From Psammoneis japonica (Eukaryota), in contig QPGO01000137.1 in the NCBI GenBank assembly GCA_008632985.1, positions 124,001 through 188,000 of the forward strand: a stretch of DNA of 64,000 bases. Reading direction: 5' to 3'. Positions within the stretch are counted from its first letter, which is position 1. Every line of letters begins with the position of its first letter. A program made the translations under genes and the position numbers. Positions 7,731 through 64,000 of this stretch are shown here, piece by piece. The notes beneath the pieces are model-generated. The model searched no databases and was not told the DNA's origin. It was given only the letters and a program-made list of their open reading frames with translations.

Positions 7731-8615
7731 GGTGTCCTTTTTTCGTTTCTCGTCAACACACACAAGAGACAGGGTTGTTGTGTGAGATGGTGAGTGTGTG
7801 TGCGGTGTGAGGAGTGGGGTGAGCTTCTACGTTGGTTCTGGTATTAGTTCTACGTGACTTTTTTACTTTCTACCGTTTTACTTGGGATATGAGCTGCTTA
7901 TTTAGTTGGACAAACAGACAGACTTCTTGCAACAGCATAAACACCTAATTTTTTGTTGACCCGAAGAATGCCCGTTCCCACTCTTGTTCCATCCAATGGA
8001 GAGACGCAACGTGCCATGGGAGCACAAGACACCATCAGAGTGGGGCACTGCAACCATGATGTTTGGACTTTTTCAACATCAGCCAGCTGCTCACCCTCTG
8101 CGAGCAGTGCAACCTCTCATTGCAGTGTGGTGACAAAACAGCCTCTCATTGCAGTGTGGTGGTGTGTCAAGCAATGCTTTGCAAGGGAAGAAATGACTGG
8201 CATCGATGCCTTGTGGCTTGCATGCTTGTTGTCATTTCTTGCAATTTTCTGTCATTTTAGAGAATTTGCCACAAAGGCTCCAGTGCAAATTCTGCATGAC
8301 TCAGCAACAAATGCTGGCGACCTCCTCCTTCTTGTCAAATCACAAAACTGCTTCCATCCACACCACCCCGCCAGCAGCCCTCCTCAACAATCTTCCTTTC
8401 TCCCATTGTCCAATCAAGTGCTTCACTCTGTGGGATGGTGAGAGCACTGCCTCTGTTGCAGCACATGTGCACATGAGTGAGTTGCCATCCTCTGGCGGCA
8501 TTGTTGATTTTGATTGCCACTCATTTGCTGCATGAGCCAGCATTTCTGCACAAGCTCCGGCGCTGTTTCTGCGTGGGGTGCAATGAATGATTTTTCCAAT
8601 GTGCCAACCAGTCTT

Positions 8616-10476
8616 TCTTGGAACATCAGGGTTGGAGGCAGTTTTCACAGGACAGAGAGAGACAAAGTTGTGGTGGAAAGATGTGCCAATGAGGCTGTGA
8701 ACAACACGTGATGAGTTTGTGCTCGCAACTTGGTTTGCCTTGAGCTGCAGGTCTTGTGCTCACTTTTTAGCTTCTGCACCTGGTCAACATGGCAGCAGCA
8801 GTTGGTGGCAACAGCAATGCATTTGCAAGCCACACGGTGAGTTGGAAGTTGGTGAGACCAAATGTGCACCAGTCAGCAAGCAGCAAAACTCCAACACAGA
8901 AGCCAAAAAGGTTCAGCACGACACACTCAAAGAACTGGTGTCATGTGTCAGAAGGCTGGTGGGAAGTTGAGAGGAATCCAAAAACAAGGGCTGGGAAGGA
9001 AAGTCAACAGGAATCCAAAGGTGTGTCTCATGTCAGCAGATCAATCTCTGGAGGGCCTTGCTGCCCAAGAAGCTGTCAAGGGTCTGCTGAAGAAGAAGGG
9101 CATGTCAAGGTTGTGTCGGGGTCAGAGAGACAGAGTGCACAGCTGTCAGCAAGTGATGGAACTCAAACACAAGTCCCGGAAAAAATGGGCAAGGACACAG
9201 CTGAGTGCAGGAGCATGAAAGATTCAAGTGAGGGCAGGTTTGTGACACCATTGCCAATTTGGGGGGGGGGGGGCAGCAGGCAGATGGTTCTTGCACAGAA
9301 ATCACAAGGAAGATCAGCAAGCATGTGCATGTCAGAAGAGTGTTTGGGCCAGAGGTGCAGGCGCGCTGGTGTTGCTGAGGCAAGAGAGCAACCCAAAAGA
9401 GCTGGTGCATCCATTGGGAGTCACCATGTTGGAGAAGGACAAGGCAATCTGGGGCAAGGAATGGAGCGTGATCTCTGCAAGACATGGAAGGTGAGGGCAT
9501 TTGATGTTGTTGTGGGGCAATGTGCAAAGGATGTTCATCACAAGCTTGAAGGAGTGATGGAGTTTGCAAGAGCTGCAAAGGAGCGGGACATGGCAGCACT
9601 GCTGGACACTCTCAAGTTGATCTTGTTCAATGCAAGTCTGAAGTTGAGCCCACCACATGTCCAGGTGATCAAAGCTTGGCAGCAGCAGGTGCTCATTCAT
9701 CAAGATGAAGAAGAGGCACTTCAAGATTGCCAAAATTGGCTCATGAGTGTGGCTCACAAGTGACGGAAACATCTTGTGGCCGGGTCATCAGGAAAAAATG
9801 CCAAGAAAGAAAATGGGTTCAGCAAGGATGCTGATGACACCCGGAATGAAGAAAGGAACAAGCGTGCCAAGGAACATTGGCATCATGTCCTGAAAGACCA
9901 GCATTGGCAGTTTTCACTGGGGTTTGAAATTTGTCCCAATCAAGCCAAGGAGGCACTGCAGGTGTTGGGCACCTGAAGGGCCAACAAGAACCTGATGGAC
10001 AAGCTTTGTGCAGAGCAAGAAGAGCCAGGTTAGATGCTGGAAATGTGACACAAGGTTGAGCATGTGAGAAAGGACTGTCATGACAGGGATGCATCGTTCA
10101 TTGGCACAGTTGAGCAACATGGAGCATGGGAGTCAATGGAGCAGTTGGCATGGTGTTGGGTGGCACAGATTCCAACTGTCATCCTCCTGTGCTTGACTCA
10201 CATGTGGTCAACCAGTTGACACTTCTTGTGTGAAGGAGTGTGTTGGAACATTTGGATCAAAGGTGGTTTTCACAAGAGGACAGACAGACAAAGTTGCAGA
10301 GTTTGCAACTCAGCTTGAGTTGTGGGTCTCATGTGCTCACTTTTTGGCTTCTGCACCCAGTTGACATGGAAAGAACAGCAGTTGACAGCAACAGTGGTGT
10401 GTTTGTGAGCCGTGCAGGGAGTTGGGAGTTGGGGAGACCAAATGTGCACCAGCCAGCAAGCTGCAAAACTCCAACA
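8616..10476 (+). mobile_element. Non-autonomous (gag-only) Copia-like LTR element, decayed; LTRs ~8616-8896 and 10241-10476
   Basis: Direct repeats both ending CTCCAACA. The 3' LTR starts TGTTGGA after a purine tract (tgaaggag). 5-bp TSD GTCTT at 8611-8615 and 10477-10481. Gag-like remnant RAFDVVVGQCAKDVHHKLEG...DMAALLDTLK. Confidence 0.75.
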
Positions 10477-11864
10477 GTCTTGCCTTCAAGGCTCCTTGTT
10501 GCACACATCCAAGTCCTGGCCAGGCAATCTCTTTCTTCTGTCTGTCAGCTTGTCAAGGTTGCTGTTTTGAGTGACAAACTTCCTGCCACTCTTGTTGCAG
10601 CTCTCCTTGGTGCAAAAGATGAGCAACCTTTTGACCCTGGTTGGTGCTTGTTTTGGAAGCAAATTCCAGTGCAGTTTGTGGTTTCTTTTGAAGCTCTTCC
10701 TGAATGTGACTGTCCTTTGCTGTCATGGTGTGCTGGCCTCTGTGTGGTTGCTGCCAGAGCAAATGCAACAAACTCTTTCAAGTGTTGTCTCCTCTCTGCA
10801 CCAGCTGTTTCAGCGAGGCATCACCATCTGGTGACATCTTTCCTGGCCCATCTCCTGCAACCCCTTCTGCCACACCAGTTGGTCCACTGGAAGTGTGAGT
10901 TGACCGGCACCAGTGTTGCTGGGCAAAGGTGGTGCACCATTGGTTTTTTTTCATCATGTTTGATGGGTGCCCATCATGCAGCAAAAAATTCTGGCTCAAA
11001 AATGAAGTGCAGTCAGCTGAAAAGGACAGGCACAATGGCAGGAGAAGTGAGTTGGGTGGCCGCTGCAAACCAGCAACCATGGATGTCTTGCCACTCTCTT
11101 CAAAAAAGGATGCTTTTGTCGTGTGCAACATGCAACCTGACATGCTGCTGCAGCCACATTTCAGCAAAGTGCCCATGTCCATCAAGGGAAGAGAGTGGCA
11201 TGATGAAAAGGAAAAGGTGCACAGCCTTGCATTTCATGTCATGCCCCCAACCCCCAATGTGGTTGCTTGATGAGCATGGCAGTGTTCTTGTTGAAAAACA
11301 ACTCACAACAGAGGACACCTGGGGCAAAGAGGTGAGTGGTCCTTTCTTTTTGAAAGATGGTGATGAGAATGGTGACCATGCCACAGAATGCTTCTCTCTG
11401 CCCTGTTGGAATGCCGAGCTGCAGCAGTCTCAAAGCAATCACCAGATGTTGGAAAAACACCCATTGCACACATTGTTCAATGGCATGCTTTGAGTCGCTG
11501 CCTTGTTTGAAGTGGTCAAAAGTGCCGCTTAAAAATTGACAGTCTTTTTTCTTGAGGCAGCAGCTGAGCAGGGATGCAGCAAGCTCTGCGACAGTCATGA
11601 CACCTGCTTGATGCTTGTCAACTCAGTCCAACTCATGGAGTTTGCTCAATCTTTTGCCAGGAACTCAAGTTGCAGCTCAACATCATGAGCAGCTGGTTGG
11701 CACTTGAAGAAATGCCAAGCAGCCCTCATGGCCATTGTGTCAAGAGAGCCATTGTGCAGGCCAAACTCTGTGCTTGGATGCAAGCAGATGCTTCAATGTT
11801 AAAACCACAGCCTCAGATCTTTTCTGCCAATTTGATGATGTCAACAACAAGGTCTGGCCAGCCA

Positions 11865-12250
11865 GTGTTTCCCAAATGTGCACTTTGGTTGACCAAAATG
11901 GGCACTTTGGTTGGCGCAAATTTGGTTGAGACAAATTGATGCTCATCACCAAAATGACTTTGTTTCCCAAAAACATCATTTTGGTCAGGGAAATTTGGTG
12001 TGCTTTGGAGGGAATCTTCCATTGGAAAGCAAGCATGTTGAGTCCAACACATTGTGCAAACTTTGCAGAAGCTGCATCAGCACTGTTTTTGTGTGGAAAT
12101 GTGCACAAAAATGAATTTGGTTGACACTTCACAGGTGTTAATTTGGCCAACCAAATTGGTTGGGTCAGTCTGCAAATTGGCCAACCAAAACATTTTGGAT
12201 CAACCAAAATGGCAAATTGGTCCAACCAAAATGCACACTCAGGAAAAAGC
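11865..12250. mobile_element. Decayed MITE with ~60-bp degenerate terminal inverted repeats and multiple TTGGTTG/CAACCAA subterminal motifs
   Basis: The left end ttcccaaatgtgcactttggttgaccaaaatgggcactttggttg resembles the reverse complement of the right end caaccaaaatggcaaattggtccaaccaaaatgcacactcaggaa. Confidence 0.5.
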
Positions 12251-14029
12251 GCTGAGCTCAACCATTCTCTGGCGCTGTTTGACCCTGAAATCAAGCAAGA
12301 CTTGACCACCACCAAAGGTCTCCAGCCATGTGTGGAGCCATGCAAGTGATGAAGAACTCATTTGCTTTGGTGTTGAAACATGAAACACCAAGAAATGCAC
12401 CACTCTGGGTGGAAGTTGGTGCATCACCAGCAGTGATGTCATGATGTTTTGTCCATCTTTGAGTGGCCAGCAGAGTGGCCAGATCAACTCGCAAGAAGCT
12501 CTCCATTGCAGTTGTCTGCCATTCCATCCAGTCAAACTGGGGCTGTCAAGTGCAAGAACATTGATGTCATGCACCCACAATTTGCTTGGTCAAGCATTTC
12601 AGTTGAGGTCACAACACCCAGTTGTGGCACGCCTTCATGAGTTGTCCACCGTGTTGTGCCAGTGCAACAGAATTGGCCTTCAGATGCATGAATTGCCAAT
12701 GCCATGCTGAAGTTGTGGAGGCAAGGGTCATCAAGAAAAGAGCTGCAGATTTGGTGGTGTCTCAAGCAAACAGAACATGAGGCAAACAAACAAATTGTGG
12801 AGCAGAGTTGCCAAAATCACAACAAATTTGCAAAGACAAGAACCAAATCTCATCTCTTGCTCTCTTCTTCCAGAGAACAAGTCACAGTGCTGTGATGCCT
12901 GCTCAGAGAACAAAGTGGGTTGTCTCTCTCTTGAGGTTGCACAATCCATGGTGCAGAAGCCAGAAGATGCGGCGCTGACAACAAAAATGCCACAAGTTCT
13001 AAAGACACACAAACCACAAGCAGACATGATTTTCTTCATCACCTGCATGGAGCAATTGCACTGCATGACAAACACTGCACAACAGACAACAATGTGCCCA
13101 ATGGTCAATGGCTGCTGCTGCAGTGGGACTGCACACTTTCATTTTTTTGGCTCCCACACAACCCCACATGTGATGCACAAAATCATGCCAAATCCTGCAC
13201 AACTGTCATGCAGTGAGCACCAATGGTTCAAAACACTCTTGCTTGTTCAAAAAAATTGAGACAGATGGAGTGCCACTTTGCTGTTGCTGCAGTCACTGAT
13301 GTGACAATGGGTGCTGAACACAGGTCACAGGTGCTTGGCTTCATTGAACACTCAAACCTCATCATTTTGTGCAGTGTTGGTTCACAGGAGGGCAGAAAAA
13401 GCTGGGTGAAAGGGTCAGCCAACAATTCCTGTTGATCTGCCATGGTTGTTTTTCAACCTCAAAGGCAACCAAGGTCTTGCTGATGCCAAAGCTTGTGTTG
13501 TCATGCATCTTGAGGTGTTTTGGAGGAGAGACAGAATGAGCACAGCAGTTGTCTGTTGCCCCCACAAGATGATGTCATTCCATGATCCATGAGAAAGCAT
13601 CAATTTTTCATGTCGTCACAAATGTCAGCAAAGTGTTTCTGAGGCAATTCAACCCCAAATGGAGCTCATGAAGACCAGCAAAGTGCTTCACATGGAAATT
13701 CATGCTGCAGCTCAACAAGTGAAGAACACACTTTTGCAAAAAAGAGGAGGGTCCATGCCAAGCTGACAACAAAGTTGTTCAGCATCTGCCATTTGGTTGA
13801 TTTGTTGGTGCTGCTGTCACAAATTGGAAATGATGTGGGCCCTCATTTGTGGCTTGAAAGACTCATCTGCAGGCAACAAAGCTCAACTTTGGGAACACAA
13901 GTCAGCACTCCATGTGCAACAAGCAGTGGAGGTGCACCACCTGATGAGATGCCAAATTGTCCGCTGCTGGATGGCGTTGGCAACATGCGCACAAGTTGTT
14001 TGGCTGGTCATGTTCTCAGAAGTCAAGGC

Positions 14030-14072
14030 TCTCCTCCCCCCCCCCNTCTCTCTCTCTCTCTCTCTCCCCCCT
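14030..14072. repeat. poly-C/(TC)n microsatellite containing one N
   Basis: ctcctccccccccccntctctctctctctctctcccccc. Confidence 0.9.
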
Positions 14073-14302
14073 CCACAAAGAAAACAACAGCATTTGCAGG
14101 CACACTTTTGGCAAGCACTGTCCCAAGTTGCCAAAAGCTGTAGAAGCACCACGTTGTTGATTTTGAGGCTGGGTTGCTGATTGACAGACAGCGGTGAATG
14201 AGTTGTGGAGCATTGCATCTCTGGTGACACACCACACCTTGCATTGCTCAGAATGTTGGCACGCCATTTGGACATTTCTTCTTTTCCAAAGTGTTTGAAG
14301 CA

Positions 14303-14498
14303 CTCAGTTGCACTCCCCTTGACTTGTTTGGGAAGAGAAGTTGCAAGTTTCCACAGGTTTCTGAGGACACACAACGAATCCAATCAGAAAGGTGCCAAAA
14401 TCGCGACGTTCGAGTTTTTTAAAGAGCCACACAAAATGAGAAACCTGTGGAAACTTGTGACTTCTCTTCCCAAACAAGTCAAGGGGAGTGCAGTTGAG
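14303..14498. repeat. ~60-bp inverted repeat pair (14303-14362 / 14439-14498) with ~76-bp spacer
   Basis: ctcagttgcactccccttgacttgtttgggaagagaagttgcaagtttccacaggtttct matches the reverse complement of 14439-14498 with about 4 mismatches. Confidence 0.8.
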
Positions 14499-15155
14499 GA
14501 TGGATCTACGTGCTGCAGTCTGTTTTTTGGGAGCTCGCACTTTTTATAAAAATGACCCGGATTCGTTGCACCAAACACACGCGTTGTTCGCCAAAAAAAC
14601 ATTTCAGCGATGGGCCGAACTTTGTCCGCTTCAAAGACACTGCAGAGTGCACAAACAATGGTTTTGACCATGTGTGACTTTTACCTTGTCGACTGCAGAC
14701 ATGTCAACAGCCAGTCAAATGCCACTTGTCGGCAATTCCCGGAAAGTTGCGGCTTGTTTCCCATGAGAAGCCCGATTTTAGCGAAAATCAGCTGTTTTTT
14801 CGACCGGGCAACTGGGCAGAGGCCGACAAGTGGCATTTGAAGCACTGAATGTGCAGCTCTTATAGCCGTCTAACAGCCCCCAAGAGGGTTTGACGAACGC
14901 ATGAGTGTTCGGGGGCGTTCCGAGGCAGGTCAAAATAACACGGTGAAGTGCGGGAAATTCGAGCTATTTTAAATTAGACCGCTGCACCTAGATCCATCAA
15001 GTTGGCGAGCCGACTTTGGCGATTTGTGTAGAAAACATACTAAGCTCTACGTACGTAGAATCTGAAAACTTAGGACTTGGCATCGACTCTCATCGATTCC
15101 AATCCAACTTGAAACTTACTCGACAGAAACGACAACATCGCTGCAAGCCGTCACG

Positions 15156-16301: not shown

Positions 16302-17257
16302 GATACAATCGTATTGCCCAAATGTTTCGGAAAGCACTCGAGAAATTGGCGATCGGAGTGAATGAAGAGATGGTTCTGATGGTGAAGAGTATTTTAGATA
16401 AAAGGGGGCAACAATTTAGAAGCATCTAGAAGACGAAACAGAATTTAGAAAATTTTCCCCTCTAGTAGAGCTGACACTTATCTTAAATCTTACTCTGTCA
16501 AACCTTGCGGTAGGGCTCTGCGTCTGAATAGGTGGTAACCGCATGACGGGGACGTGCTCTCTGCAATCCCACACCTTGGCGGAAGACCTTCATGCTGGTC
16601 CTCAATTTGTTGAGTGTCGCTGCGTCAGTGACTATTCGTGCACAATGTTGTGAAGGTGGAAAAATTCTACAACATTGTGAATGCGCGACAGTCTCACCAC
16701 AACGACGACATGACAAATGAAAAACTGAGAACTGGTGGCTGCCCTCCGACTCAGTTCCAGTGACCACCCAACTCGGTCTTCAACCAAGCCACCGACAATT
16801 AAAAAGACAAAGGCAAAGAGGCAACAGGCAAAGTGCCAGCAAAGAATGAACTGGACAGTCTTGCTTGCAGATTTGAAGCACTGGTCAATGTCTCTGCTGA
16901 TGACAGGGCAGATTCAGGCAGAAGCAGAAGGGTGTTTTCTTGCATTCCAGAGAGCAGATTGTTGTCTTTCTCCCATCATCAACAAGTGACTCTCTCTTTC
17001 AAAATCTTCTGCACCAATGAAGTGGTTCTGTCATTTCTCACAAAGTGTCAGAGTCTGGTCCTGCCAGTGCTGGCACCACATGGATGACATGACAATCAAA
17101 TGGCAGCAATGCTGGATTTTCAAATTGAGGCAGCAGCAGCTCGGCATCAAGGGTTGCTGTCATGCCAAGTGTCAGAAGATTTGCTGCCACTGCCCAGGCA
17201 CACAATGCTCAAAGTGTGCCAACAATTTGTTGGTCCTGTCAATGCACAAGGCAAAAA

Positions 17258-17488
17258 GTGGTGTGTGAGATGGTGAGTGTGTGTGCAGTGTGACGAGTGG
17301 GACAAGCTTGTGTGCAGATTCTAGAGCAGAGAGCATGAATTCAATGTGACTTTTTTCTTTCTGCCATTTTCGAGTTTGTGGGGGATGCAAGCTTCATGAC
17401 TTGGCAAACAGCAAACAAACTTGTGTGACACAACCAGTCTAAATAAAAGACAGGCTTTCTGCAACAGCACAAACACCTGAAAATTTTG
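17258..17488. repeat. Decayed duplicate of the RPS18 upstream/promoter region (cf. 7775-7955)
   Basis: Shares tgtgagatggtgagtgtgtgtgc, gtgactttttt.ctttct and gcaacagca.aaacacct with 7780-7950. Confidence 0.75.
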
Positions 17489-17566
17489 ACATGGTCATTG
17501 TTTTAGAATCTGCTGCAAACCTCATTGAGCAGCATCAGCAATGTCGATGCAAAACCCAAAACCAAC

Positions 17567-18100
17567 ATGGCAGAACAAGAAGAGGAGTTTGAGACAGAAG
17601 GTGCACTCAAAGCTTGGTTGGAAAGCAAAGGGGTTGGGAGGTGCAAAGCAGCAGAAGCCATTGTTTTGTTCCACAAGGGTTTCGACAATCCAGATTGCTC
17701 AGTGGAATCAGCCCTGATGTCTTGCATGGAAATTGTCTTTCTGATGCCATTGCACAAACTTTGAGCAACAAGCTTGCCAAACAACAGAAGCAAGGTCAAT
17801 CTCCCACTGTGTGTGCATTGGGGAAAGGCTTGGTTGGTCTGGACAAATCACATGAGGAGCAATGCTGAATGTGCAACTCTTGAACCTCTAGAGCAAGATC
17901 ATGTGAGGACCCTTTTTGAAAGATTTGGCTTGATGGATGAAGATGAGAAGTTTTTTCAGTCAGCTTCACAAGTCCACCACCGGTGTTCTAAGGTTTGTTG
18001 CCCATGTGGTCAATTTCTTTGCAGATTGGCATCCCGGGGCAGGTAATGAAAAGGCAAAGAATGGGAGGGAAAGACATTGATCTGATGTGCCTTGGAGTTT
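17567..18100 (+). pseudogene. Decayed gene with a diatom SAM-like N-terminal module (MAEQEEEFETEGALKAWLESKGV...FDNP...LSNKL)
   Basis: Recognisable N-terminus of a multicopy diatom family (from recall, not searched), followed by frameshifts in TA-depleted sequence. Confidence 0.4.
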
Positions 18101-19388
18101 TGACAGTGTCTTTGTTGGGAAAGCAACCAAGAGATGAATCCTCTCCAAGGCAATGCTTGCAATCTGTGTGCATTCTTCATTGAGATGATTTGAGTCACTG
18201 CTCCGCATCTGCCTCTCAACCTTGATGCAAAAATCATTGGATCCAATGGGGGTTGGAAGCAAATTCAATCATGCTCAATGTGTGTGGTGTCTGTCTGCTG
18301 CACTTGAAGAAGCACACTGAAGTGGGAACATCTGAGCACCATTTTGTCACAATGCCCCCCAGCTGTTTGGACAATGTCTCGGCAGCCTGCCAGGATTTGC
18401 TCATCCCCTTTTGGGCTTCCTTGTGCAAAATAAATCCAGCCCAGGCAAGTGCACAAAAGACTCAGGAAGCATTCCAGAGTCAATGGCACAACAGCGTCCA
18501 TGCCCTTGTGTGAGTGAAGAGTCAAATCAAGGACAAAAAACATTGGTGGAGGTTCTTGAGTTTGTCAAGGATTTGAAAATTGCAGGCTCAACATTTGAGC
18601 CCAACACAGATCATGCACTCAAGAAGTTCTCCAAAATTGCTTTGGCTCCAAGTCCAGGCAACTTCATGCTGGCAGAAGGCAGTGCACAAGTCTTTCTTCT
18701 CCAACCAGCGTTGCTTTTTCTGTTGCCATGTGTGCTCTCTGCCATCAAAAGCCAGCATTGCTGTTTTGAAGATGCTGCCACCACTCAGCAGTGCCAAGAA
18801 AGCGCCCCCTTCAATGGCCGTGCCCTGCACCCAGTGCTTGCTTTGCTCACACAGATGTTTTTTTTGCAGTTTGAGAAAAAGAAAGGTGTCAGCTGCCATT
18901 GTCTTCATTGTTGATTGCACCTGTGCACTTGCAGCAGGTGCTTCAGTCATTGACAACTTGCACAGTGTCTGTCATTGAGGAGTTCCTCAGGGGGCACCTC
19001 TCCTCTGTCTCCTCTTGTGTGGTCACCAATTTTTTCCTGACAAAGTGGACACTCTCCACTGCTTTCAATGGCACTGAATGCACCAAGCACACAGGGGGAG
19101 ACAAGAGCTGCTGCAAGGCTTTAGAAGAGCTGTTTTGGATCAAGCTTGGCTGTCTCCTTGTCATCAAGCAAGGCATCATTGCAGCAATGCAGTGGAGCGA
19201 GCATTGCTGCTGTGTGGAGAGCTGAGAGAGCCTTCCAAACAACTTCGGCACCTTCTTTGTTGCCCACTCTCTAATCTCTTTGGGCTCTGAAAAGAGCTGG
19301 GAAGTTGGCACAGAGCAACAAGCAGCAGCGCAAGGCTCTTGTTGTTGGCTGTGATTGCGGAATTTCTTGCAACCACCACCAGCACTGG

Positions 19389-20575
19389 CATTGAGAACAA
19401 ACAAAATGTGCCAAAACTTGTGGCCCTGCATGAAGCTGTCTGGCCTGCAGCATTGAGCAAGAAGAATTTGTTGTGAATGGAAAAGACCTGGATGAAAAGA
19501 AAGCAAGCACAGACGACACAAGCAAGGGTGGATTTTCAATCCATCCATGATGATGTCATGATGAGATGATGACACATCCATCACACAAGTGATGGCAGTG
19601 TTGACATGACACAAATTTGCACAAAACATTGGCATGGAACATGAGCCACAAATTTCAGAAAAAGCCAATGCCCAACCCCAAATTGCCACACACGCCACTT
19701 GCCAGTGCTCCTTTAGAAGCCAGCGCTGCTTGTTGACATCAACGTCAAGTCAACTGGGGCTGCTTGCACCCTTTTGTCTGAGTTTTGTTTGATGAGCTGA
19801 ATTTTGGAGGTGAACTCAAGCTGTCAGGAGTGCAAAATCCCATGCATTTTTAGCTGGCTTGTCATCAACCTCGCTCTCACGCCACTCGCTCTTGTTGTGT
19901 TTCTTCAAAGTGGCAAGCTCATTTGCAAAACAACATGATGTGCTCAAGGGACTCACCTGGCACCTGATTTAAAGGAATGAGCAGAACTCAGCAAGGTCAA
20001 TTTGCATCTGATGAATTCTGGAGAAATGCATCCCCATGGATGTCCAGGATGATGTCATCTCAATCGCGCAGCGCCACATCATGCACACTCAGAAGCTGCA
20101 GTGTGTTGTCAACAACAAGCACGCAAAATTCTTTTAGCTGCTGACTGGCAGTTTTCAAGAATGGGATCACATCGGCTCTTTGCCATCATCATTTGTTGGC
20201 ATGCACTGCAGCTGACAAACAAAAACAAGTCGCGCCAGCCAAGTTTCTTTTTCGTGAACGCCAAACTTGTCAATTTTTGCAACCTGTGCAAAGAGCGGTT
20301 TCAGCGGGATGTTGTGCCCACATCTTGAACACATTCCTCATGCCAGCTTTTTTCACATGGTGTCCTTTTTTCGTTTCTCAAGAGCAAACACACAAACACA
20401 GAAAGGAGAAAGTGTTGTGCGATTATTTGTGTGCGGCGAGCTTGTACGTGGATTCTCGTATGAATTCTACGTGACTTTCTTACTTTCTACCGTTTTACTT
20501 GAAATAACTGTAATATTTGGTTTGAGTAAGGGAAAACAGACAGACTTCTTGCAACAGCATAAACACCTAAATTTT
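19389..20575 (-). pseudogene. RPS18: RPS18 pseudogene fragment: exon 2 start plus intron (19389-19583), ~740 bp of unrelated insert, then exon 1 and promoter (20322-20575)
   Basis: CCRPDSFMQGHKFWHILFVLNA versus [22 protein letters not shown]. Intron similarity (aaaagacc.ggatgaaaa, agacgac.ca). 20322-20575 matches 7655-7952 (acatggtgtccttttttcgtttctc, aaacagacagacttcttgcaacagcataaacacctaa). Confidence 0.8.
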
Positions 20576-35225: not shown

Positions 35226-35489
35226 AAACAATGGTGCAGAAACTAAATAATGTCGCAAAATTGAGCCACCACAACACTCTGCGCACTGTACCGTACTACA
35301 ATCCCAAAGTTACAATGCTCGAGCAAAACCACGAATGCTGACTAGCTTTCATTTTTGTCTGCTTTGGAGCTCTTGCTTGGTCGGTACCCTCTTGTTTTAG
35401 GATGAGGAGTGCCTTTCTGTCCGTCAACCGAGCAGAGCGTACGGATGATGACCCTTGATGATGCATGCGACGGTTTGCCATTGCATTTA

Positions 35490-50601: not shown

Positions 50602-51577
50602 GTTGGAGTGCTCTCCAAATGGCATTACAGTACAGTAAATTCAAACTTTATATGTAAACATACGTTTTTTAATACATAAACAGGTTTTTGAATTTTATAC
50701 CTCTTTTAAAACTGAATATAAACACTTAGTTTGAAGTCGATTTTCAAATTTGCCGGGAGAGTTGGTCATGACACTGTGTCAACTAAACCACAAAACGGCA
50801 CACGCCAAAAGCAAGAGTGCAAACCACCGCACGCACTTCCTCAAGTGAAATGATGTCCATGATGAATGGCCAGCCCATCAATCTGTCATCATCTTCCCTT
50901 GAGAAAAAATGCTCTCATTTGATTCCCACATGGAAGAGGGCAATGACGCACAGCAGCAGTGCTTCTTGCACAAAGATGGCCTCATTGGCAACACTGGTGG
51001 CAGTGTGGCATTGATGCAGCTGAAGGGGGTGTTGGCACTCTGGAGTGCAGGTCTTTGTCAGTGCACGAGAAATGCAAAAGGACAAAAGCTCGGTGAGTTG
51101 GGGATTCCATGCTGCTGTGCCACTTGGGCTGCACCTCCATTGCGTGACACAGTGATGCCACAAGAGATTTGAAGAAAACAAATTTGAAATTTTGAATTTT
51201 TGGAAAAGAAGGTGCACGCCAATGTGTCAAGAGGGTGCTGCCATGCAAGTGAGCCAAAAAGGCCATCAACCACCATTGCAACAGCCGCTGATTGGACTCC
51301 ACGCTGAGGAGGTTCATCTGGCAAAGCAGCACACATGCATCCACCAAAAGAGAGAAAAAGAAGGTGGCCTGAAATCAATTGCTTCCTTGTCCTTGACCAG
51401 GTCAAGTTTGTGCAATTTTGCTGCAATCTTCCACATTTTATCCTCCGTGTGTCTTGAGGCAGTGAGAGGAGCAACATGACCGCCAGCAGGAAAATGAAGA
51501 GCCAAAGGGGCAGCACTGGCATCCTCTGACCCTTCTTGAAGATGAACAAACCACTGGACAACATGGCACATTTGCGC

Positions 51578-51975
51578 CATGCTCAAAAAGAATGAGTGCA
51601 AATGAAAGCAGAGCAAATCATGAAAAGCAGACATTGTGGCTGAGACTGGATTTTGCACTGCGATTTTGGGATTCTCACTTGACAACAGATTGTCTGGCTG
51701 TGATCGACATGCTCAAAAAGAATGAGTGCAAATGAAAGCAGAGCAAATCATGAAAAGTGGACATTGTGGCTGAGACTGGATTTTGCACTGTGATTTTGGG
51801 ATTCTCGCTTGACAACAGATTGCCCGGGTGTGACCGACATTGACATCTTATGTGTCAACTTTGTCTGTTGATTGCATTTGCAATTTTTGACTTCCAATCA
51901 ACTCTGTGTGATTGATCTTGTCTGTCAATTGCATTTGCAATTTTGGACTTCCAATCAACTCTGTGTGATCGATCT
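51578..51975. repeat. Tandem duplications: ~130-bp unit x2 (51578-51840) and ~57-bp unit x2 (51860-51975)
   Basis: catgctcaaaaagaatgagtgcaaatgaaagcagagc occurs twice; gcatttgcaatttt.gacttccaatcaactctgtgtg occurs twice. Confidence 0.8.
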
Positions 51976-52689
51976 GACCATCATGTGCATCCACAATTGC
52001 CGTGCGATTGACACACACCCAACAAAATGCACAATTGTGAACATGCACAATTTTGTCCACTTGACAATGCACACTGCATTTACCTCCCCAATGGAGACCA
52101 GGACAATTAAAAAATGGGTGACAGTGTGCCAAGTGCATGGAAAATCAAAAAAGACACAAAACATCAAAAGATTTGAGCATCAAGTGCTTGTGAGAAAGGC
52201 AGTTGACAGGTTGTCAGGGACAACAAGAACACATGTGACACATTTACATTGAAGGATTGTGCACAAAATTAGCCTGGAACCCACCAAAGGCAAGCCATGT
52301 GTCACATGCTTGTTCCATGGTGGTGCTCAAGTTGACTTTGATGCCATGCTTGTGCTTGCTCAATGGCATAGACAACAAGAGCTGGGGCGGATCTGGCATG
52401 GACAACTTTCAGATCAAAGCAGCTGACACCGAGAGCAAATGAAATGTGTCTGATTTTTTAAGTTGGTGGTGCAGTGTGCTGCGCATTCAGCAATGCGGCA
52501 ATGACCAGATTGTCTGTCAAGTGAGATTGACTCCATTGTCTGTCAAGCAATCACATTTGACAATGCTGTTCTGTCCACTGCCATTCTACGTTGTCTTTGG
52601 AAATTTTTTGCCAGTTTGAAATTGACTGCTTCTTGAGTGTCTGTTGTGCTCCAGCACTTCTGGCAATCTGTCTTTTTGGTTAAGCCAGA

Positions 52690-54300
52690 GAAGCCTTGGC
52701 ACACCATGCAATGATGCACACAATGCCAACAATTGCTTCAATTGGCAAACCATTGCAACGGCCTTCAAAGGTGCCATTGACAAGTCCTTCCACGGTCCTG
52801 AGTGCAATGACAAGCTCTGCTCCATCTGTTGCTCCTCCTTCAACCAAACAAAGGTGGCACACCTTTGCTCACTCCAGCTGGTGCTGTGCTGTCAACTGCC
52901 CCACATCCATGGCACCCAGAGCACCATTTCCAAGCAACATGTCATCTGCAACTCCATTGGCTGAACCCAGTGGTGTGCTGTCTTTGAAGCCCTCCATTGT
53001 GGCCTCTGCAACTCCATCAGGATTTCCAACCTTAGAGCAAAGTGATGTGCCATCAACAACTCCATCAGATGTGCCAAGCAACATGCCATCTCAAAACCGC
53101 CAACTGCTGACACTTCAACAACACCTTCAATGGTTCCAAGTGTGGTCCCCAGCAATCTTCCATCTCAGCAAAGCTGTCATTTCAACCCAGTGATGCACCA
53201 TCCACATCACCTTCAAGAGGTCCAAGTGTGCTCCCCAGTGATGCACCATCTGTGGTGCCATCATCTGCCCCAAGTGGTGAGCCATCACAGCAGCCTTCAA
53301 TGGCACCATCCACAAGTCCTTCCACCATCCTGAGTGCAATGCCGACCTCTGTTCCATCTGCAGCTCCCTTGTCCAAACTGAGCAGCATGCCTTCACTTGC
53401 TCCATCCAATGCACCATCAACTTTTGCTGTCCATGGCACCCAGTGTGTTTCCAAGCAACATGCCATCAACAGCTCCGTTGGCTAAACCTGGTGGTGCACC
53501 ATCCTTGAGGCCATCCTCAGTGGACAGTGTGGACTCCACAACTCCTTCAGATTTCCAAGCTTGGGGTGGAGTGATGTGCCATTGACAGTTTCGTCCAATG
53601 TGCTGAGCAACATGCCATCAGAAACCCCTCCAAGGATTCCAAGTGTGGTTCGTGGTCAAGCACCATCAACAAATCCATCATTTAAACCAAGTGATGCACC
53701 ATCCCCAACACCTTCAGTGGTTCCATCAAATGCACCTTTTGCATTTCCAAGTGTGCACCCCAGTGAAGAATCATCTGCAATGCCGTTGTCTGCCCCCAGG
53801 CACCCAGCAAAACACCATCAATGAAACCATCTTTAGAAGCAAGCAGTGCATCTCCATTTGCACCCTCCTCCTCCACACCAAGCACCATTGTGATTGACAT
53901 GACATTGACTCACCATCATCTGAACCAAGTGACATGCCAGCAACTGCCCCTTTGTCAGCTCTGAGCGGATCTCCTGGCATTGTCCATCAATGAACAGCTC
54001 CTTCAGGTGAGCCAAGTGGCAAGCCATCTTTGCTGCCATCCAAAGTGCCAAGCTTGCAACCAAGCAATGTGCCATCATCAACTCCATCACACAAACCAAG
54101 TGATGTGCACCTCTTCAAAAAATCTGTCCTCTGTTCCAAGTGGGGCGCTGCCGTTGACATGTTGGAACCGCCAAGTGTGGCCCCAAATCCATGCTCACAC
54201 TTTGAACCAAGCAATGTGCCATTGGTTCTTTCTCTCAAAATTGCAAGTGTTGACACAGACTCTTTGGAAATGCAGTCTTCTGAACCATGGTGACAACTGA
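52690..54300 (+). pseudogene. Decayed PS-x-x-PS (mucin/adhesin-like) repeat protein gene with internal duplication
   Basis: Fragments PSDAPSVVPSSAPSGEPSQQPSMAPS and PSTNPSFKPSDAPSPTPS are scattered over shifting frames. 52755-53050 resembles 53295-53600. Confidence 0.65.
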
Positions 54301-55576
54301 AAGAAGACAATCAGGTGTCAGTTGATCAAGTGCAGACATGCAGCTGCTTGCGTGCAACAAGGCACATGGTTGCCACTTGTTCCTCTGCCTCTTCCTGATG
54401 GCACATTTCCAAGATAAGCCAGTTGGCATCAACATGCAACAAATGAGTCATCTCCACCACCCACCACACCATGCACCACAGCTCTGTGCCACAAAATGGT
54501 GCACAAGTCAAAAAAAACAATGCTCCTTCTTTCTTGAGAACATGACCAGTGAGCACATGCTTTTTGTCAAACTGCTGGATTCACCATCCTCTCACACTTG
54601 CACCCATTCTCCCATTTGATGTGTTTGCAGCAGCACTTTTTAGAGTGTAACTCAAGAAGCAGGAGGCTGGAAAGGGCTTCTGGGCACATTCCTTTGTGGT
54701 GCACTAGACACATGAGGTCCAGTGCTTTTTCCTTGTCAACTCCGGCCCTGCAAGAAAGGAACACAGGAAATTCATCGCCACATCCATGAGAAAGCAGTTC
54801 AGTGGATGCAGGAGATTGCAGCTCACAAAAGTGTGCTGTCTCGTGCCATCATCACCTTGCCTTTGTTGTTCCTTGCAGCCATGACAAATGCATTGGGCTG
54901 TCACAGCACAGTGGCATGTGTTCAGCAAAACAACTTGTCTTTTGTGAAGTAATTCATTTGACATTCGTCATCCAACTCCATTGTTCTGTCCACACAAAAC
55001 ACAAAATGTGGTGGCTTCTGGACCCCACCTCATTTGAGGCAGCCAAACAATGATCTCTCGGTGGCATGGGAGCTCTCCACATTCAACACCAAGCTTCCGA
55101 CAAGTCTTGCACACATCTGTGACTGGAAATCTCCAATCACTTTCTTTTGGCGCTGCTCCAAGAGCCACCTTCTGTTCAGAGCCCCGCCAAGATTCCCAGT
55201 GGTTTCTTCTCTGAGTCGATTGCAAACTGCCCTCAGGCATTTGAGCATGGTCCTGCCAGGTCCACTTACATCCTCATCCACATGATCGTCAGGGTGTTGT
55301 TGCGGTGAAGCCAAAAGTTCGTGTGTGCAAGACTAAAGGTATAATAAAAGCATTCACGGTTGCCTCTTTGTGACCTTGTTTCTGTTCAAGATAAAAGTGA
55401 ATCTTCCTGTGACACAAGATGAACCAATCGGCATCAAAAGGTGTTTTGGGAGACATTCCAAAGTGCAGCAGTGTCACTCCTCGCATTCACGTTTACCGAG
55501 AGACTTGGCCATGTCACAAGGCCGCATGTATAAAGCCACATTGTGAGGATTTCTCTTACAGTATAGTCGTGTTAAA

Positions 55577-58797: not shown

Positions 58798-61700
58798 TGT
58801 CAAACCAAGGTCACCACATGCCTTGTGCTCCTCACAGGAGGCTAACCTCCTGTCGTTTCGGATTGTGGAGTTTCAGAGTCTGCAGGTGGGCGAGCAGCAT
58901 TGGTTTTGCTGCTGTTCCAATCAATCATCTTTGCATTGCTGCAGCGATCCAAGCAAGCACTGTTGGGTTGGGATGTGGCTCCATGTCCATGCTGTGACCA
59001 GGCCAATCAGAGGTGCACAGCAACATGAAACCACTGCCTTTCCAAGAAAGTGAGCTTGGTGCCACAAAGGTCAGAAGTGCAAGCTCAAGCTGAGGTTGAT
59101 GTCAAAACAAAGAAGTGAGTAGACCAAAGAGAGGGAGAGCCTGAGTGTCAGTGAGCGCTGGCGAGCCCTCTCAAATGGCTGCGTCAATCTAACATCCAAA
59201 ATTAACACTGCATGTCAGAAGCGTGCGAGTGAGTTGCTGCACTCTTCCCTTCCATGATCCGAAAGAACTAGAGGATCATGCAAAGGGTTAAAACCAGGGA
59301 CCAAAACCCAAAGAAATTGCAACAGCAGGAGGAAACCCAGGTGTTGGGAAGAAAATGCAGCATGCATGCAGACAAAAGGTTGTTTTTGTCATGCCCTTTG
59401 TGACATTTAAAGGCTGCAACACGCCGCCGTGATGCATTGACTCTTGTCAGTGGCTGCGTGTTGCACTCCTCCCCATGCATCACGCGTCCACACGGCTCTT
59501 TGCCAAAGTGTGCTGACACTGCACGGTTTTGGTGGAACAGTGTGGGTGCGTGCGAAGGAACATGCAGAACTGCACAGAGTTTTGCGTGTTCGACAGTGAT
59601 CAACGTTGCTGCAGACAACTCCCACTCAGGGTTTCGAACCCCTGGCCTCCTGCCTGATGGTTGCGATGAACCACTCCGCTGTGAATTCATGGCGCAGCAT
59701 GCACGCAGACAAAAGGTTGTTTTTGTCACGCCCTTTGTGACATTTAAAGGCTGTGACACGTCGCTGTGATGTGTTGACTCTTGTTGGCAGCTGTGTGTTG
59801 CAAAAACCCCCTGATCAACCACGAAAGGGAATCAGGCGCCGAATGTTGAGGCGCTCAACCACATGAGGAGCTCGATGAAGCGAGAGCGTGCCATTCACAT
59901 GCACTTGAACAATGGGACAAGGGCCATGAGCACGAGGCTCGAGTCTGGACGGGTCAACCGACTTGATTGGAACTTGATCACCCACTTGACAATCGCAGGA
60001 TCTTCTCTTGGCATTGGCTCTTCGCAAATTGTCATTGATCAGCGTCTGGCGATGGCCTTGAATCGTCAACAAGTCTGCCAGCACAGGGACACCTGGGATC
60101 ATGTCACGTCCAAACACCATGGCACCTGGTGAAGTCTGTAAAGAACGGGAAACAGCACAGCGAGTTGCATGCATTGCAGTTGCCAAAGCATGATCCACGA
60201 GGCCAGCTGCACCCTGAAGGTTTTGAGGTGGATTGGAAGCAATGAGCGTGCGCAGTGCATTGCCGACAGTCTGGTGCATTCGTTCGCAAACAGCATTGGC
60301 TTGAGGGTTGTATGAAGCAGTCGGCACATCATCAATTCTGGCTTGTTGCAACAGCATCTGAAAATCGCACCCGGTGAACTCGCCGCCGTTGTCGTGGATG
60401 CATCGATTCGGTCTGGGACAGCGTGCAAGCCAGCAGTTTTCGAATTGGTTGGCAACATGTCGGGCAGTTTTATTTTCAATTCTCACCAGTTCAACAAGAT
60501 TGGAGACAGGATCAACACAGGTCAATGCCCGAAACTCAATCTCTCAATTCGGCACTTTGATTTTCCACGGGCCAATGAGGTCAACCGCCACTTCTGACCA
60601 GAGAGCCAATGGAGCTTCTCGCTCGGGTGACTCTCCACAGCCAGGACCTAAAGATTTGTTACATTGGCAATCAGCACAAGAGCACTCATCACACATGCGA
60701 CGCAACCCAGGATGACAACAATGAGCCTGGATCATTTCATGCATGCGCTGGCTTCCGGCATGGCCAAGGACGAGATGACACCACCGCAATGTGTCGGGCA
60801 TGAGCGCAGTCGGCAAACAGATTTTCCACTGTCCTGGAGGATCATTTGGTTGCATGCGATGACACACAAGCAGTCGATCATTCACACATTCTACGAGGAA
60901 ACGATCAGGGTGAGCAATGCGCATCTGGTTCAACTGTTGGTCCTCGAACTGGTGCTCTTGAATGCATTGTAACGTCATCGGATTCTGCATCTCTTGCATC
61001 GTAGGGTGGTTCAAGAAAGAATCGAACAGTTCCGGCTCATCCACAAAGAAAGAGAAGAAGTGTGAGTGGCCTTCATTTTCAATGTTGCAACAACACTTGA
61101 ATCGGCACGCGCCGAGCTCCAAGTCCTCATCGCGGAAATCCTTGAATTCGGATGGTTCCTCACTCGGCACCAACTTCGAATCGAGCAGAGCAAAATCAAC
61201 AACAGTTCCTTTGCCCGGAGCCAAGCTCTTCCCTTTAGAGGGAGGATCCACACGAGGTGAGTGAGAAAAACAATCAGCCAAGACATTCAATCGGCCTTCA
61301 ATGTGATGAAATTGAGGGGCAAAGTCTTCCAGAAAGAGTCGCCAACGAAGCACACGTTGTGAATTCAAGGTGCGAAAGGTGAGGTTCTTGTGGTCAGTGA
61401 ATGCATGCAAGTCGCCACCAAGGAGCATCAATCGGCATTCTCGGAAGCACATGACAATGGCCAACAGCTCTTTTTCGATCGTCGAACAGTTTTGTTGCGC
61501 CGCATTGAGCTTTCGAGACCAGCACGCAATGGGCTTTCCATCCTGTTCAATCACTGTGCCCATCTGGCAATCACTTGCATCGGTGTAGACATGGAAGGGT
61601 TTGTCATGATTCGGATGTGCCATTGATGTTTCAGCCGCTGGGACTGCTTTCATCTCATTGAACGCCACCTGACTTTCCGCTGTCCATGTCCACGTGCCTT

Positions 61701-64000
61701 TACCTGTGAGATCTGTTGAGGGTTTCAACAGGTGAGAACGCCAAGGCCACACATTGCGACAGTGCGTTGCAGCGCCAAGGAACGAACGAAGCTGCTTGAT
61801 GTTTTCCGGAGGTTGCATTCGCAGGACAGCTTCCACCTTTTTCTTCCACGGATGAATTCCAGTCGGAGTTAGCCAATGCCCAAGGAAATCCGTTTCCTGC
61901 ACACACCATTCGCATTTCAAAGGATTTACTTTGAACCCAGCTTCTTCCAAGCATTGTAAGAGTTCATCAAGACGGTCAAGGTGAATGTCAAAGTTGTCAT
62001 CAAATTGAGCAAGATCATCAATGTGCGCGTCAACGTCCAAGTTGTGCACAGTTTTCTCAATCAAACATTGCGCAACATCTGGAGCTGGCTTCAGACCCAT
62101 TGCCAAATGGCAGCATCGGCACTTTCCAAAGGGTGTCACGATTGTCGTCAAATCCTTGGAGTCATCATCCAATTCGAATGCATGGCACATCATTGAGAGG
62201 TCCAATTTGGTCAAAAACTTGCACCCGGCTCTCTTCTGAAGCACATCTTGAATGATCGGCAAAGGACAAACCTTGCGCTTGAGGGCTTTGTTGAGTTCCC
62301 AAAAATTGCTGAGCCACCGCACTCGACCATCCTTCTTTGGCCGAATGAAAGTGCCAGCAGCCCATTCCGAAGTTCCGGCTTCTTCAAGAACGCCAAGAGC
62401 CACCAAGTGATCCAGTTCTCGTTTGAAAGTTTCAACATCATTGTGCGGCACTGCATGCACTCGAGAATGACAAGGAACAGCGTTGGGATCAATGTCAAGG
62501 TGAACTTTTTCGCCAGCATGCTTGCCGAGAGTGCCATCAAAAAGAGCAGTGTGTTTTTCCAATGCGAGGCGTAATTTTTCTTGTTGTTCGGCAGTGAGAT
62601 GCTTCTGAGCCGACGCTGCTTCAGAAGGGGACGTCTCCTCACACTTTGCATCGAGGATGTGGCTGTCCCATGCATCATCATCGTCAGCTGGCTCATCAGT
62701 CAAGTCGTCAAGCCACTGCTGGATGCCAATCCGATGGTTTCTTGGTTTCATTGCAATGCTTGAATCGAGCCACTTGACAGTTCCGTGTTCAAAATCTAAC
62801 GTGATGCCTGCTCTCGCCAAGAAGTCCTGTCCAAGGATCACATTGCACTGGCAAGGTGAGTCAAACACATGCGCATGCATGCCATCAACACGTTTGGTCT
62901 TGTCAAATTCAGGGAGCACCACATCCCGCAGTCAAACGTAATGAGCAGATTTGAATTCTCCCGCTGACGTCCGAAACTTCGCAACAATTGGTCCTGTGTC
63001 CTCCAATGCTGGTGCTGCTCCAACTGGCAACACCCGAGCATGAATCATTGAATGGGTTCCACCAGAGCTGAGTGACACCCGCATCACGTGCTTGCTTTCC
63101 TTATCTTGAATGAATCGCGCCGCGAACAAGGTTGCAGGGACCACGTTCAAAGGTTTGGTTGGTTTTGTTTTTGGGGTTGGCACAGCGCACTCAAGTCCCA
63201 CATCGTCTTCGTCATTCACAGTGTGATTTTCGAAATCGTCATCATCAAACAAATCAGCAGCATGCACATGACAATCATCAATGCAGTCAGCACAATCATC
63301 AAACACACAGGAATCAGGAGTGACACACTCGGACGACAGCTCTTCAAGCTCATTGGGTCAGCATCAACCGCGTCCCGAGAAGCGACCACCAGGTCGAAAA
63401 CTTCCCACTCCACCTCGATGCTCACGAGGCCCTCCCACAGAATCAAGATGATGGCTTTCAGCAGACCAATCATCAGGAGGAGCCATTCTGGCCAGATTGC
63501 CGTAACCGCCACCATCTGCATTGGTTTGGGTGTCGTTTTGATGTTGCATGCAGGAGCCACCATCTTCATGATGCTCGCCGCCATTGCCACCAGAGTTGCA
63601 GTTTCCTTGACCGCCACAATTTCCTTGGCCACCACCACGACCTTGACAGCCACGGCCTTGCCAACCATGACCTTGATTTCCACCATGACCATGACCTCCA
63701 CCGCGACCGCCACCTCGACCACCACGGCCACCACATCCACGACCGCCACGATCAGTTCTTGGACAGCAGTTGTTGGAGTCAGGATTCATGACGCAATCTT
63801 TCCACTTGTGATTGTGAGTGTGCAACGGACATTGGGTTTCTGGGTCAATGCGATTGCCTTTCTTCTTGTTCGAGCCGCCTTTAGACTGTCCATCTTTGCG
63901 CTTTTTCGACGTCTTCTTGTTCCCATCTGCAAACGATTTCTCCGTGCTCATGTGCGTGACTGTTTCCGCCAGTGTGTCATTTCCAATCGTGCGTCCTGCT
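58798..64000 (-). mobile_element. Ty3/Gypsy LTR retrotransposon (5' part outside the window); 3' LTR ~58798-59241
   Basis: Gag with CPLH..H.W..C and RGG tract (63364-63951), then protease, RT (LDLSM, TPFG, HIDD), RNase H (VYTDAS, EKELLA, TDHKNL) and integrase (HAG..R, DLIGP, DNGGEF, NPQAN..ER). PPT ggaagggaagag lies next to the LTR at 59241. The distal LTR end is approximate. Confidence 0.93.
59356..59802 (-). mobile_element. TRIM copy C, nested in the Gypsy 3' UTR
   Basis: Reverse complement of copies A and B; 4-bp TSD AAAA. Confidence 0.88.

Follow-up and report, generated by a model that had tools for sequence, protein, structure and literature searches.

Islands nearly devoid of TpA in a diatom genome: evidence for a probable TpA-to-TpG/CpA hypermutation of silenced transposons

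We analyzed a single window (the whole stretch of DNA under study, 64,000 nt of contig QPGO01000137.1) from the diatom Psammoneis japonica, to which all counts given below refer. In it, well-supported genes for a kinesin, a TylF-type methyltransferase, an ALMT-type channel, a glycosyltransferase, the ribosomal protein uS13 and three lactonase paralogues alternate with six blocks that are almost free of the dinucleotide 5′-TA-3′ (TpA), two of which carry a Copia-type and a Gypsy-type long terminal repeat (LTR) retrotransposon. The limits of the blocks come from a two-state segmentation on TA density, which returned seven low-TA segments (7947-14506, 16669-20423, 25363-28957, 29250-33804, 35489-41494, 50785-55266 and 58844-64000), and the observed/expected ratio (o/e) of TA was also scanned in 1-kb windows. 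The blocks, the two retrotransposons and an insertion resembling a miniature inverted-repeat transposable element (MITE) are:

7947..14506: low-TA block 1, TA o/e 0.02 (9 TA in 6,560 bp), CG o/e 0.15
16669..20423: low-TA block 2, TA o/e 0.06, CG o/e 0.21, containing hypermutated copies of the uS13 5′ region
25363..33804: low-TA block 3, older hypermutated sequence (25363-25620 with TA o/e 0.07 and 32466-33804 with TA o/e 0.02) in which the Copia element is nested
25621..32465, plus strand: Copia-type LTR retrotransposon, nearly full-length, its polyprotein matching residues 1-1850 of a relative, with frameshifts
28943..29295: MITE-like insertion of 353 bp with 24-nt terminal inverted repeats that are 83% complementary
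35489..41494: low-TA block 4, TA o/e 0.04, CG o/e 0.32, with two Gypsy-family LTR copies, A and B
50785..55266: low-TA block 5, TA o/e 0.06, CG o/e 0.19, with degenerate tandem repeats at about 52430-54250
58844..64000: low-TA block 6, TA o/e 0.09, CG o/e 0.72, continuing past the window end
59356..63147, minus strand: Gypsy-type LTR retrotransposon, with its 3′ LTR (copy C) at 59356-59803 and pol at 59821-63147

In the 1-kb windows, TA o/e lies at 0.00-0.14 inside the blocks as against 0.38-1.16 in the intervening genes, and the o/e of TG and CA rises to as much as 1.4-2.1 inside the blocks. A preliminary description of this DNA had reported near-absent TA and saturated TG/CA in these blocks beside TA-rich genes; both points hold, and its block limits agree with ours to within about 350 bp. 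The 34,110 bp of low-TA sequence contain 117 TA, 3,489 TG and 3,969 CA, as compared with 1,178 TA, 2,372 TG and 2,016 CA in the 29,890 bp of background, where TA is also mildly under-represented (o/e 0.44-0.70). The longest TA-free run measures 1,499 bp and 25 runs reach at least 400 bp; 2,000 random placements of an equal number of TA gave no run longer than 726 bp and at most three of at least 400 bp, and the clustering is thus far beyond chance. The islands stop a few hundred bases or less short of the gene starts and do not leak into the genes. Counted on both strands, the triplets TAA and TAG together occur 186 times in the low-TA segments versus 1,037 times in the background, and TGA 1,718 versus 1,040 times.

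The dinucleotide CpG is depleted in the same segments, with a CG o/e of 0.15-0.32 in four blocks and, for those of the Copia and Gypsy elements, 0.45-0.72, as against 0.83-0.95 outside; part of the TG/CA excess must therefore derive from CG. The spectrum of the affected regions is accordingly not purely A/T to G/C, since heavy CG to TG/CA change runs alongside. In the Gypsy block, about 90% of the TA is gone (o/e 0.09; 91% loss) while the CG o/e still stands at 0.72, which makes the loss of TA the faster process, and the oldest-looking blocks are depleted in both dinucleotides. Thus, a slower CpG to TpG/CpA decay occupies exactly the same islands as the TA loss. We infer that it is a second, separate process, namely decay of 5-methylcytosine (5mC). 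The preliminary description had overlooked this CpG decay, which fills the same blocks.

The direction of the change can be read from the transposon proteins, because tyrosine is encoded by TAY only (Y, pyrimidine) and conserved Tyr columns consequently reveal the ancestral dinucleotide. We aligned the Gypsy frame, an open frame of 795 amino acids (60547-62931) with reverse-transcriptase, RNase H and integrase domains, to 60 relatives (42-59% identity), mapped the Copia polyprotein onto 45 full-length relatives and counted a column as conserved when at least 70% of the relatives have Tyr. Across 21 such columns, the Gypsy element retains one Tyr and shows 12 Cys (TGY) and 8 His (CAY), whereas five control relatives retain 21-22 of 22. 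The Copia element has two Tyr, 19 Cys, 19 His, 4 Phe and 2 Leu at 46 conserved columns, and its five control relatives keep 42-47 of 48. Pooled over both elements, 58 of the 67 conserved tyrosines have become Cys (31) or His (27), and three are still Tyr. The catalytic motif YIDD of the Gypsy reverse transcriptase now reads HIDD, in line with the earlier proposal that the elements are killed. The overall Tyr content of the two frames (0.13% and 0.22%) falls far below that of all 240 transposon relatives (at least 2.56%). None of these relatives is itself Tyr-poor, but the set is biased towards intact copies, and this is hence no sign that the process is missing from other diatoms. The other substitutions named in the preliminary description, besides Tyr to Cys/His, are likewise present at conserved columns: Leu to Ser four times, Leu to Pro twice and Val to Ala seven times. 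Of the changed conserved columns, 69 in the Gypsy and 223 in the Copia element, a single TA to TG/CA step accounts for 30 and 47, respectively, and a single CG to TG/CA step for a further 10 and 45; neither step fits the remaining 29 Gypsy and 131 Copia columns, and many of the latter belong to the N-terminal region of the Copia protein, which aligns poorly. Conserved arginines are kept in 46 of 84 cases and have become His, Cys, Gln, Trp or a stop in 33, a pattern of residues that reads as CpG decay.

A second line of polarization comes from a host gene. The uS13 5′ end and its upstream sequence (about 250-590 bp) are present in three copies in the window (7368-7953; 17171-17422; and 19331-19583 with 20355-20575), and we took the 5′ region of the working gene, which adjoins block 1 and is unmutated (TA o/e 0.55, CG 1.10), to represent the ancestral state of the block 2 copies:

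7061..7953, minus strand: working uS13/S18 ribosomal protein gene (7061-7477; Pfam match 7061-7447, E = 6e-50; Met at 7477) and its upstream sequence
17171..17422: second hypermutated copy, distal part of the uS13 upstream sequence, in block 2
19331..19583: hypermutated copy of the first uS13 codons and proximal upstream sequence, matching 7378-7637
20355..20575: unmutated continuation of the duplicated uS13 segment, matching 7727-7952 at 85-100% identity

At the sites where the working gene has TA, the block 2 copies show TG (7) or CA (5) in 12 of 12 cases, with no case of the reverse; where it has CG, they show TG (9) or CA (12) in 21 of 22. The unmutated piece at 20355-20575 is colinear with the mutated copy at 19331-19583 across 771 bp of other sequence and lies upstream of a phosphoesterase gene at 20661, for which contigs from an RNA-like read set (run X2, see below) start at 20681. 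The border between mutated and unmutated DNA therefore falls inside one duplicated segment, beside an expressed gene.

Other Copia copies in the reads differ from the window in the same manner: they have TA at 25947 where the window has CA, CA at 31318 where the window still has TA, and a TG/CA doublet (TG in one copy, CA in another) at 31226-31227. Further, 80 related Gypsy loci from metagenomes, again a sample biased towards intact copies, have a TA o/e of 0.45-1.08 and none is TA-poor. TA depletion in intact relatives and CG as the ancestral state, either of which would speak against TA-directed change, were thus both looked for; the relatives proved normal, and the Tyr codons, the uS13 paralogue and the read copies alike indicate that the ancestral state was TA rather than CG.

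The specificity of the process is best seen in the three Gypsy-family LTR copies, A (36996-37446) and B (40008-40454) in block 4 and C in the Gypsy element. Transitions in Y-R dinucleotides (R, purine) make up 56 of 62 variable columns, and the other 196 columns hold the remaining six, of which four are transitions and two transversions. At 20 dinucleotide sites the copies mix CA and TG, and one site has CA, TA and TG in the three copies. Because all three copies retain 12 CG sites intact and about a quarter of the CG copy-sites have decayed, CG ancestry would by our own arithmetic predict fewer than one fully decayed mixed site; the 20 observed thus descend from TA and were resolved independently in each copy. 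With transitions ignored by purine/pyrimidine recoding, the LTRs are about 99% identical instead of about 91%. Outside TA, adenines are largely spared, since Lys to Arg change affects just seven of 79 conserved lysines as against the loss of 58 of 61 conserved tyrosines. As the preliminary description had it, both strands are affected: the outcomes divide about equally into 31 TG and 27 CA, and a runs test on their order finds 19 runs where 20.0 are expected in the Copia element and 13 where 10.6 are expected in the Gypsy element. The adenine of either strand is thus shown to be hit equally, and each hit to be independent of its neighbors.

The TA that survive differ from those of the background in their flanks. 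Among the 117 survivors, 70 lie in Y-TA-R, 26 in Y-TA-Y, 20 in R-TA-R and one in R-TA-Y, compared with 203, 348, 281 and 340, respectively, among 1,172 in the background (Fisher p = 4e-26 over the context classes). By tetranucleotide, TTAA survives 29 times and ATAT and GTAC never, and a pyrimidine precedes each of the three surviving Tyr codons. With R-TA-Y erased and Y-TA-R often kept, the target is better stated as the adenine in R-T-A-Y. Tyr codons in Y-TA-Y, which set the effect of the −2 flank against that of the +1 flank, have become Cys in 14 and His in 8 cases, a difference that is not significant.

The Gypsy-family LTR (about 450 bp) has two further features. It carries a direct repeat of about 110 bp at either end, and its center holds a tRNA-like stretch in which the motif GGTTCGAAACC resembles a T-loop; the CG sites of this central part are kept in all three copies, and ARAGORN called no tRNA there.

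Two read sets bear on the reality of these sequences: run X1, which is possibly the assembly's own source sample and whose library type is unrecorded, and run X2. From the X1 reads, we assembled a contig of 5,529 nt (word depth 67) that covers 15035-20563 with one difference from the window. It spans block 2 together with both flanks, and the block, rebuilt whole, is therefore in the reads. The X1 depth of 67-92 over block 2, as compared with 57-96 over the flanking genes, makes this block single-copy (at a likeness of at least 85%). The one difference falls on a surviving TA:

19714..19715: surviving TA (TTTAGA), the sole X1-versus-window difference over 15035-20563, T>C, i.e., TA to CA

Reads of diverged copies of the Copia element, which is present in high copy number, differ by transitions at 799 places and by transversions at 138. 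Run X2 covers genic parts only and gives no cover over the blocks compared, which has no bearing on silencing. It behaves like an RNA library, though it is not recorded as such. Its contigs omit an intron of 97 nt with GT..AG ends (21377-21475) within the gene at 20661-22740.

Taken as a whole, these observations are best explained by a mutational process that turned nearly every 5′-TpA-3′ in silenced transposon islands into TpG or CpA, a reading to which we assign a probability of roughly 0.7. As neither TG nor CA is a target any longer, the conversion saturates, stops by itself and creates no CG. We posit that the process acts in place on chromosomal double-stranded DNA; the border inside the uS13 duplicate, the difference at 19714, the hits without strand bias and the live mutation data from the chlorarachniophyte Bigelowiella natans discussed below all favor this. 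A DNA adenine deaminase specific for TpA, of the kind proposed for the B. natans signature, would turn the adenine into inosine, which is copied as G, and the outcome would be a permanent inactivation of transposons that resembles fungal repeat-induced point mutation (RIP) with the opposite base change.

What directs the process is likely to be the chromatin state through which transposons also acquire cytosine methylation, rather than repetition as such. The MITE-like insertion, which breaks the Copia polyprotein at a point matching residue 884 of the relative, is unmutated (TA o/e 0.51, CG 1.23) though it sits within a hypermutated island; TA and CG decay are both missing from it and both present around it, and the two processes therefore go together. 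It is because of this joint absence that the targeting appears tied to a silencing state that brings methylation. The preliminary description had called the process repeat-targeted, which is unproven: block 2 is single-copy, the very abundant 353-bp MITE (the bin 28708-29371 has the top read depth, 85,639, of the stretch compared with reads) is unmutated, four blocks lack a recognizable transposon protein, and two of the three copies of a host segment of about 250 bp are unmutated as well.

Several points weigh against the reading just given. The entire material is one window, and the X1 evidence does not depend on the assembler and polisher, but it does depend on the DNA preparation. Any hint of ongoing activity from the T>C difference at 19714 comes from a single site. 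The unmutated MITE may mean that the island is not acted on throughout its length or that short or young insertions are spared. The Copia LTRs (25621-25864 and 32222-32465, 244 bp each, flanked by the 5-bp target duplication TCCAG at 25616-25620 and 32466-32470) both have a TA o/e of 0.12-0.19 and differ by one TG/CA doublet, one TA/TG difference and 10 CpG differences, although an in-place conversion of about 8-10 TA after insertion predicts about 4-5 doublets; the Copia copy may descend from a template that was mutated beforehand, or homogenization may have affected its LTRs. The 13 TG/CA doublets between LTR copies A and B, considered as proof of post-insertion change, were dropped from the argument, as no matching target duplication was found for these two copies. 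Four of the six blocks have no recognizable transposon protein and are not demonstrable as transposons: a Pfam search of 29 + 86 open reading frames (ORFs) in blocks 1, 2, 4 and 5 gave no transposon domain (only sub-threshold or low-complexity matches), and 60 Gypsy and Copia relatives used as tblastn queries matched no part of the window beyond the two known elements. Finally, the chemistry, the link to methylation and the defense role are each inferred.

Among the competing explanations, one retains the targeting and outcome of TpA-directed mutation and replaces its chemistry: the thymine of TpA would be modified by a TET/JBP-type enzyme, with hydroxymethyl- or formyl-uracil mispairing with G, or error-prone repair following 5mC deamination would introduce Pol eta-type WA to WG changes (W, A or T). 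Thymine modification favoring TpA is found in dinoflagellates, and WA is the motif of Pol eta. As TA is self-complementary, T to C and A to G are indistinguishable from sequence, and the CpG decay in the same islands fits a repair coupled to T:G mismatches. Nevertheless, we consider such a chemistry unlikely, since Pol eta-type errors should strike AA too, which the lysine and tyrosine counts contradict; the near-total saturation and sharp R-TA-Y preference resemble a motif-reading enzyme rather than polymerase noise, and the young Gypsy element has lost 91% of its TA but little CpG, so that the loss of TA does not depend on prior CpG deamination. Quite improbable, in our estimate, is an editing of the elements during retrotransposition, in which an APOBEC3/ADAR-like adenine deaminase would act on element RNA or single-stranded cDNA, the copies arriving dead and the chromosome staying untouched. 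It would suit the nearly identical outcomes of the two Copia LTRs, the independent outcomes of LTR copies A, B and C, the unmutated state of the DNA-type MITE and the coincidence of the block 1 start (7947) with the end of the uS13-upstream homology (7953). However, editing of cDNA or RNA is one-sided, and the outcomes here lack both strand bias (31:27) and coordinated runs. Moreover, a host gene fragment including promoter sequence is hypermutated, with the border inside a colinear duplicated segment; the TA to CA difference at 19714 lies in an old single-copy block; and the same signature in B. natans arises in place in integrated viral DNA.

Two explanations that would dispense with a TpA-specific process altogether have hardly any probability left. 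The blocks could be natively TA-poor, selected against TA or merely decayed at CpG. CpG decay is real, as the 21 of 22 CG sites and the 33 of 84 conserved Arg attest, and TA is mildly low everywhere (background o/e 0.44-0.70). Yet Tyr codons, lost at 58 of 67 conserved positions including the catalytic YIDD, are not derivable from CG, the relatives have normal TA and Tyr content, and 20 mixed sites stand where fewer than one is expected; for the Copia element, the Gypsy element and the uS13 copy this explanation is already refuted. Decay of 5mC as the sole cause was rejected on the same two grounds, the Tyr codons and the 20 sites mixing CA and TG. An artifact of sequencing or assembly, either a modified base misread in silent chromatin or polishing errors, is just as hard to credit. 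The only read data for the blocks are possibly from the assembly's source sample, with an unrecorded library type, which leaves this explanation some room. Against it, the X1 contig crosses block 2 at depth 67, like that of the flanking genes, with a single difference. Per-strand misreading predicts two strand-phased versions at half depth, but TG and CA are randomly interspersed and the depth is not halved, and the same types of transition recur in the many diverged Copia copies of the reads.

The comparison with described systems begins with fungal RIP, which converts C to T and G to A, mostly at CpA, creates TpA, requires duplication and strikes both copies above a length threshold; it also depends on a RID-type DNA methyltransferase (DNMT) and a premeiotic stage. 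As in ascomycete RIP, dinucleotide-specific transitions here saturate selfish DNA with sharp ends, spare the genes, kill permanently and erode similarity. Unlike RIP, the changes are A to G and T to C, and TpA is destroyed with the creation of CA/TG. As to the duplication trigger of RIP, block 2 is single-copy, and the MITE and two host copies of about 250 bp are unmutated, although short length could exempt the MITE and the host copies. Decay of 5mC at CpG shares with the TA loss the islands and the TG/CA products; it is the slower of the two here and cannot remove TA. TadA/ADAT2 naturally acts on A34, which stands after U33, and a preference for YAC marked the early base editors derived from TadA; both resemble the T-A-Y seen here. 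As with APOBEC3, ADAR and TadA, we see deaminase-type clusters of transitions in selfish nucleic acids; unlike the one-sided, coordinated tracts that those enzymes leave on RNA or single-stranded DNA, the hits here are equal on both strands and random in order. ADARs usually favor U before the edited A, as noted in a recent preprint (bioRxiv 10.64898/2026.01.13.699255). According to a study of diatom DNA methylation, diatoms methylate transposons, which fits the CpG decay, and many of them possess DNMT4 enzymes that are related to RID and whose function is not known (PMC9998398).

The closest counterpart is the TpA-only hypermutation in B. natans described in that preprint (Mettrop et al., 2026; bioRxiv 10.64898/2026.01.13.699255). 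In the mutation-accumulation lines reported there, two integrated viral regions account for 231 of 302 nuclear mutations, 230 of these 231 being A to G or T to C; every one of the GC-ward mutations falls on TpA, at a rate about 1000-fold above that of the rest of the genome and in some of the lines only (10.64898/2026.01.13.699255). TpA-poor coding sequences of that alga are enriched in reverse-transcriptase and DDE domains, and an ADAT2-like adenine deaminase is proposed, though untested there (10.64898/2026.01.13.699255). In both organisms, TpA becomes TpG or CpA depending on the strand, other adenines and thymines are spared, and the targets are clustered selfish or foreign DNA. The differences are several. 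B. natans belongs to the Rhizaria, and its targets are giant-virus and virophage insertions; the present case is a diatom (Stramenopiles), with LTR retrotransposons, a host-gene fragment and islands without recognized identity as targets. Saturation is reached here (TA o/e 0.02-0.10), as compared with the 3.3% TpA that a B. natans virus region still has in the preprint, and CpG decay accompanies the TA loss, unlike the hypermutable regions reported there, which are almost without G/C to A/T change. An R-TA-Y preference is seen here; the preprint's main text has 0 occurrences each of "flank", "context" and "trinucleotide". The B. natans evidence is live mutation accumulation, whereas ours is a fossil record plus one site. 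Our literature searches for a diatom report of TpA to TpG/CpA hypermutation found none. The preliminary description, whose authors knew of no such system in diatoms, is therefore upheld for these algae as far as the searches reach, but the signature as such is not new, given the B. natans preprint. The present case belongs with this very recently described TpA hypermutation, to which it adds the flanking context, the independence of the strands, the co-extension with CpG decay and the host-fragment control.

More tentatively, and with the odds clearly against it at present, diatoms and chlorarachniophytes might share an old chromatin-guided enzyme, possibly present throughout the SAR supergroup (Stramenopiles, Alveolata and Rhizaria), that flips out and deaminates the adenine of double-stranded 5′-R-T-A-Y-3′ on either strand. 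Such an enzyme would be a natural base editor of adenine in duplex DNA, conferring a heritable RIP-like defense of opposite polarity that in diatoms would be aimed by the silencing marks of cytosine methylation and not by repetition.

A Bigelowiella-like signature in an unrelated diatom suggests a wider genome-defense mutator. If the two signatures have a common cause, a TpA-specific A:T to G:C mutator would be a widespread eukaryotic genome defense, including in major primary producers of the ocean. The enzyme behind it would be directly relevant to base editing, as the balanced, unphased hits and the four-base R-TA-Y motif point to an action on duplex DNA. The contrast between the fast loss of TA and the slower loss of CpG is clock-like and could order insertions by age. 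For annotation, the process creates long empty ORFs and hides repeats from ordinary similarity searches, from which they can be recovered at 99% identity by purine/pyrimidine recoding; the transposon content of such genomes is probably underestimated. The empty frames arise through the loss of TAA and TAG, an example being the 419-aa ORF at 10234-11490 (plus strand) of block 1, for which phmmer found 0 relatives among 1.84 billion representative sequences, and gene callers would probably annotate such frames in low-TA blocks as orphan genes.

Some minor features of the window complete the picture. A single N stands at 14046, near the right end of block 1. The tandem repeats of block 5 (about 52430-54250) have 68% DNA identity, or 74-79% when transitions are ignored, with weak matches to Pro-Thr repeats, and could represent an ancient satellite or a repeat-protein gene that was hypermutated. 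Another set of tandem repeats, about 130 bp apart and 79-85% identical, occupies 3268-3880 within an open frame at 2999-4252 (minus strand) that matches no Pfam family. The best named relatives of the kinesin are from pennate diatoms (54-62% identity). The lactonase genes at 42250-46100 (plus strand) are three tandem paralogues with a 7-bladed beta-propeller, 68-71% identical at the DNA level.

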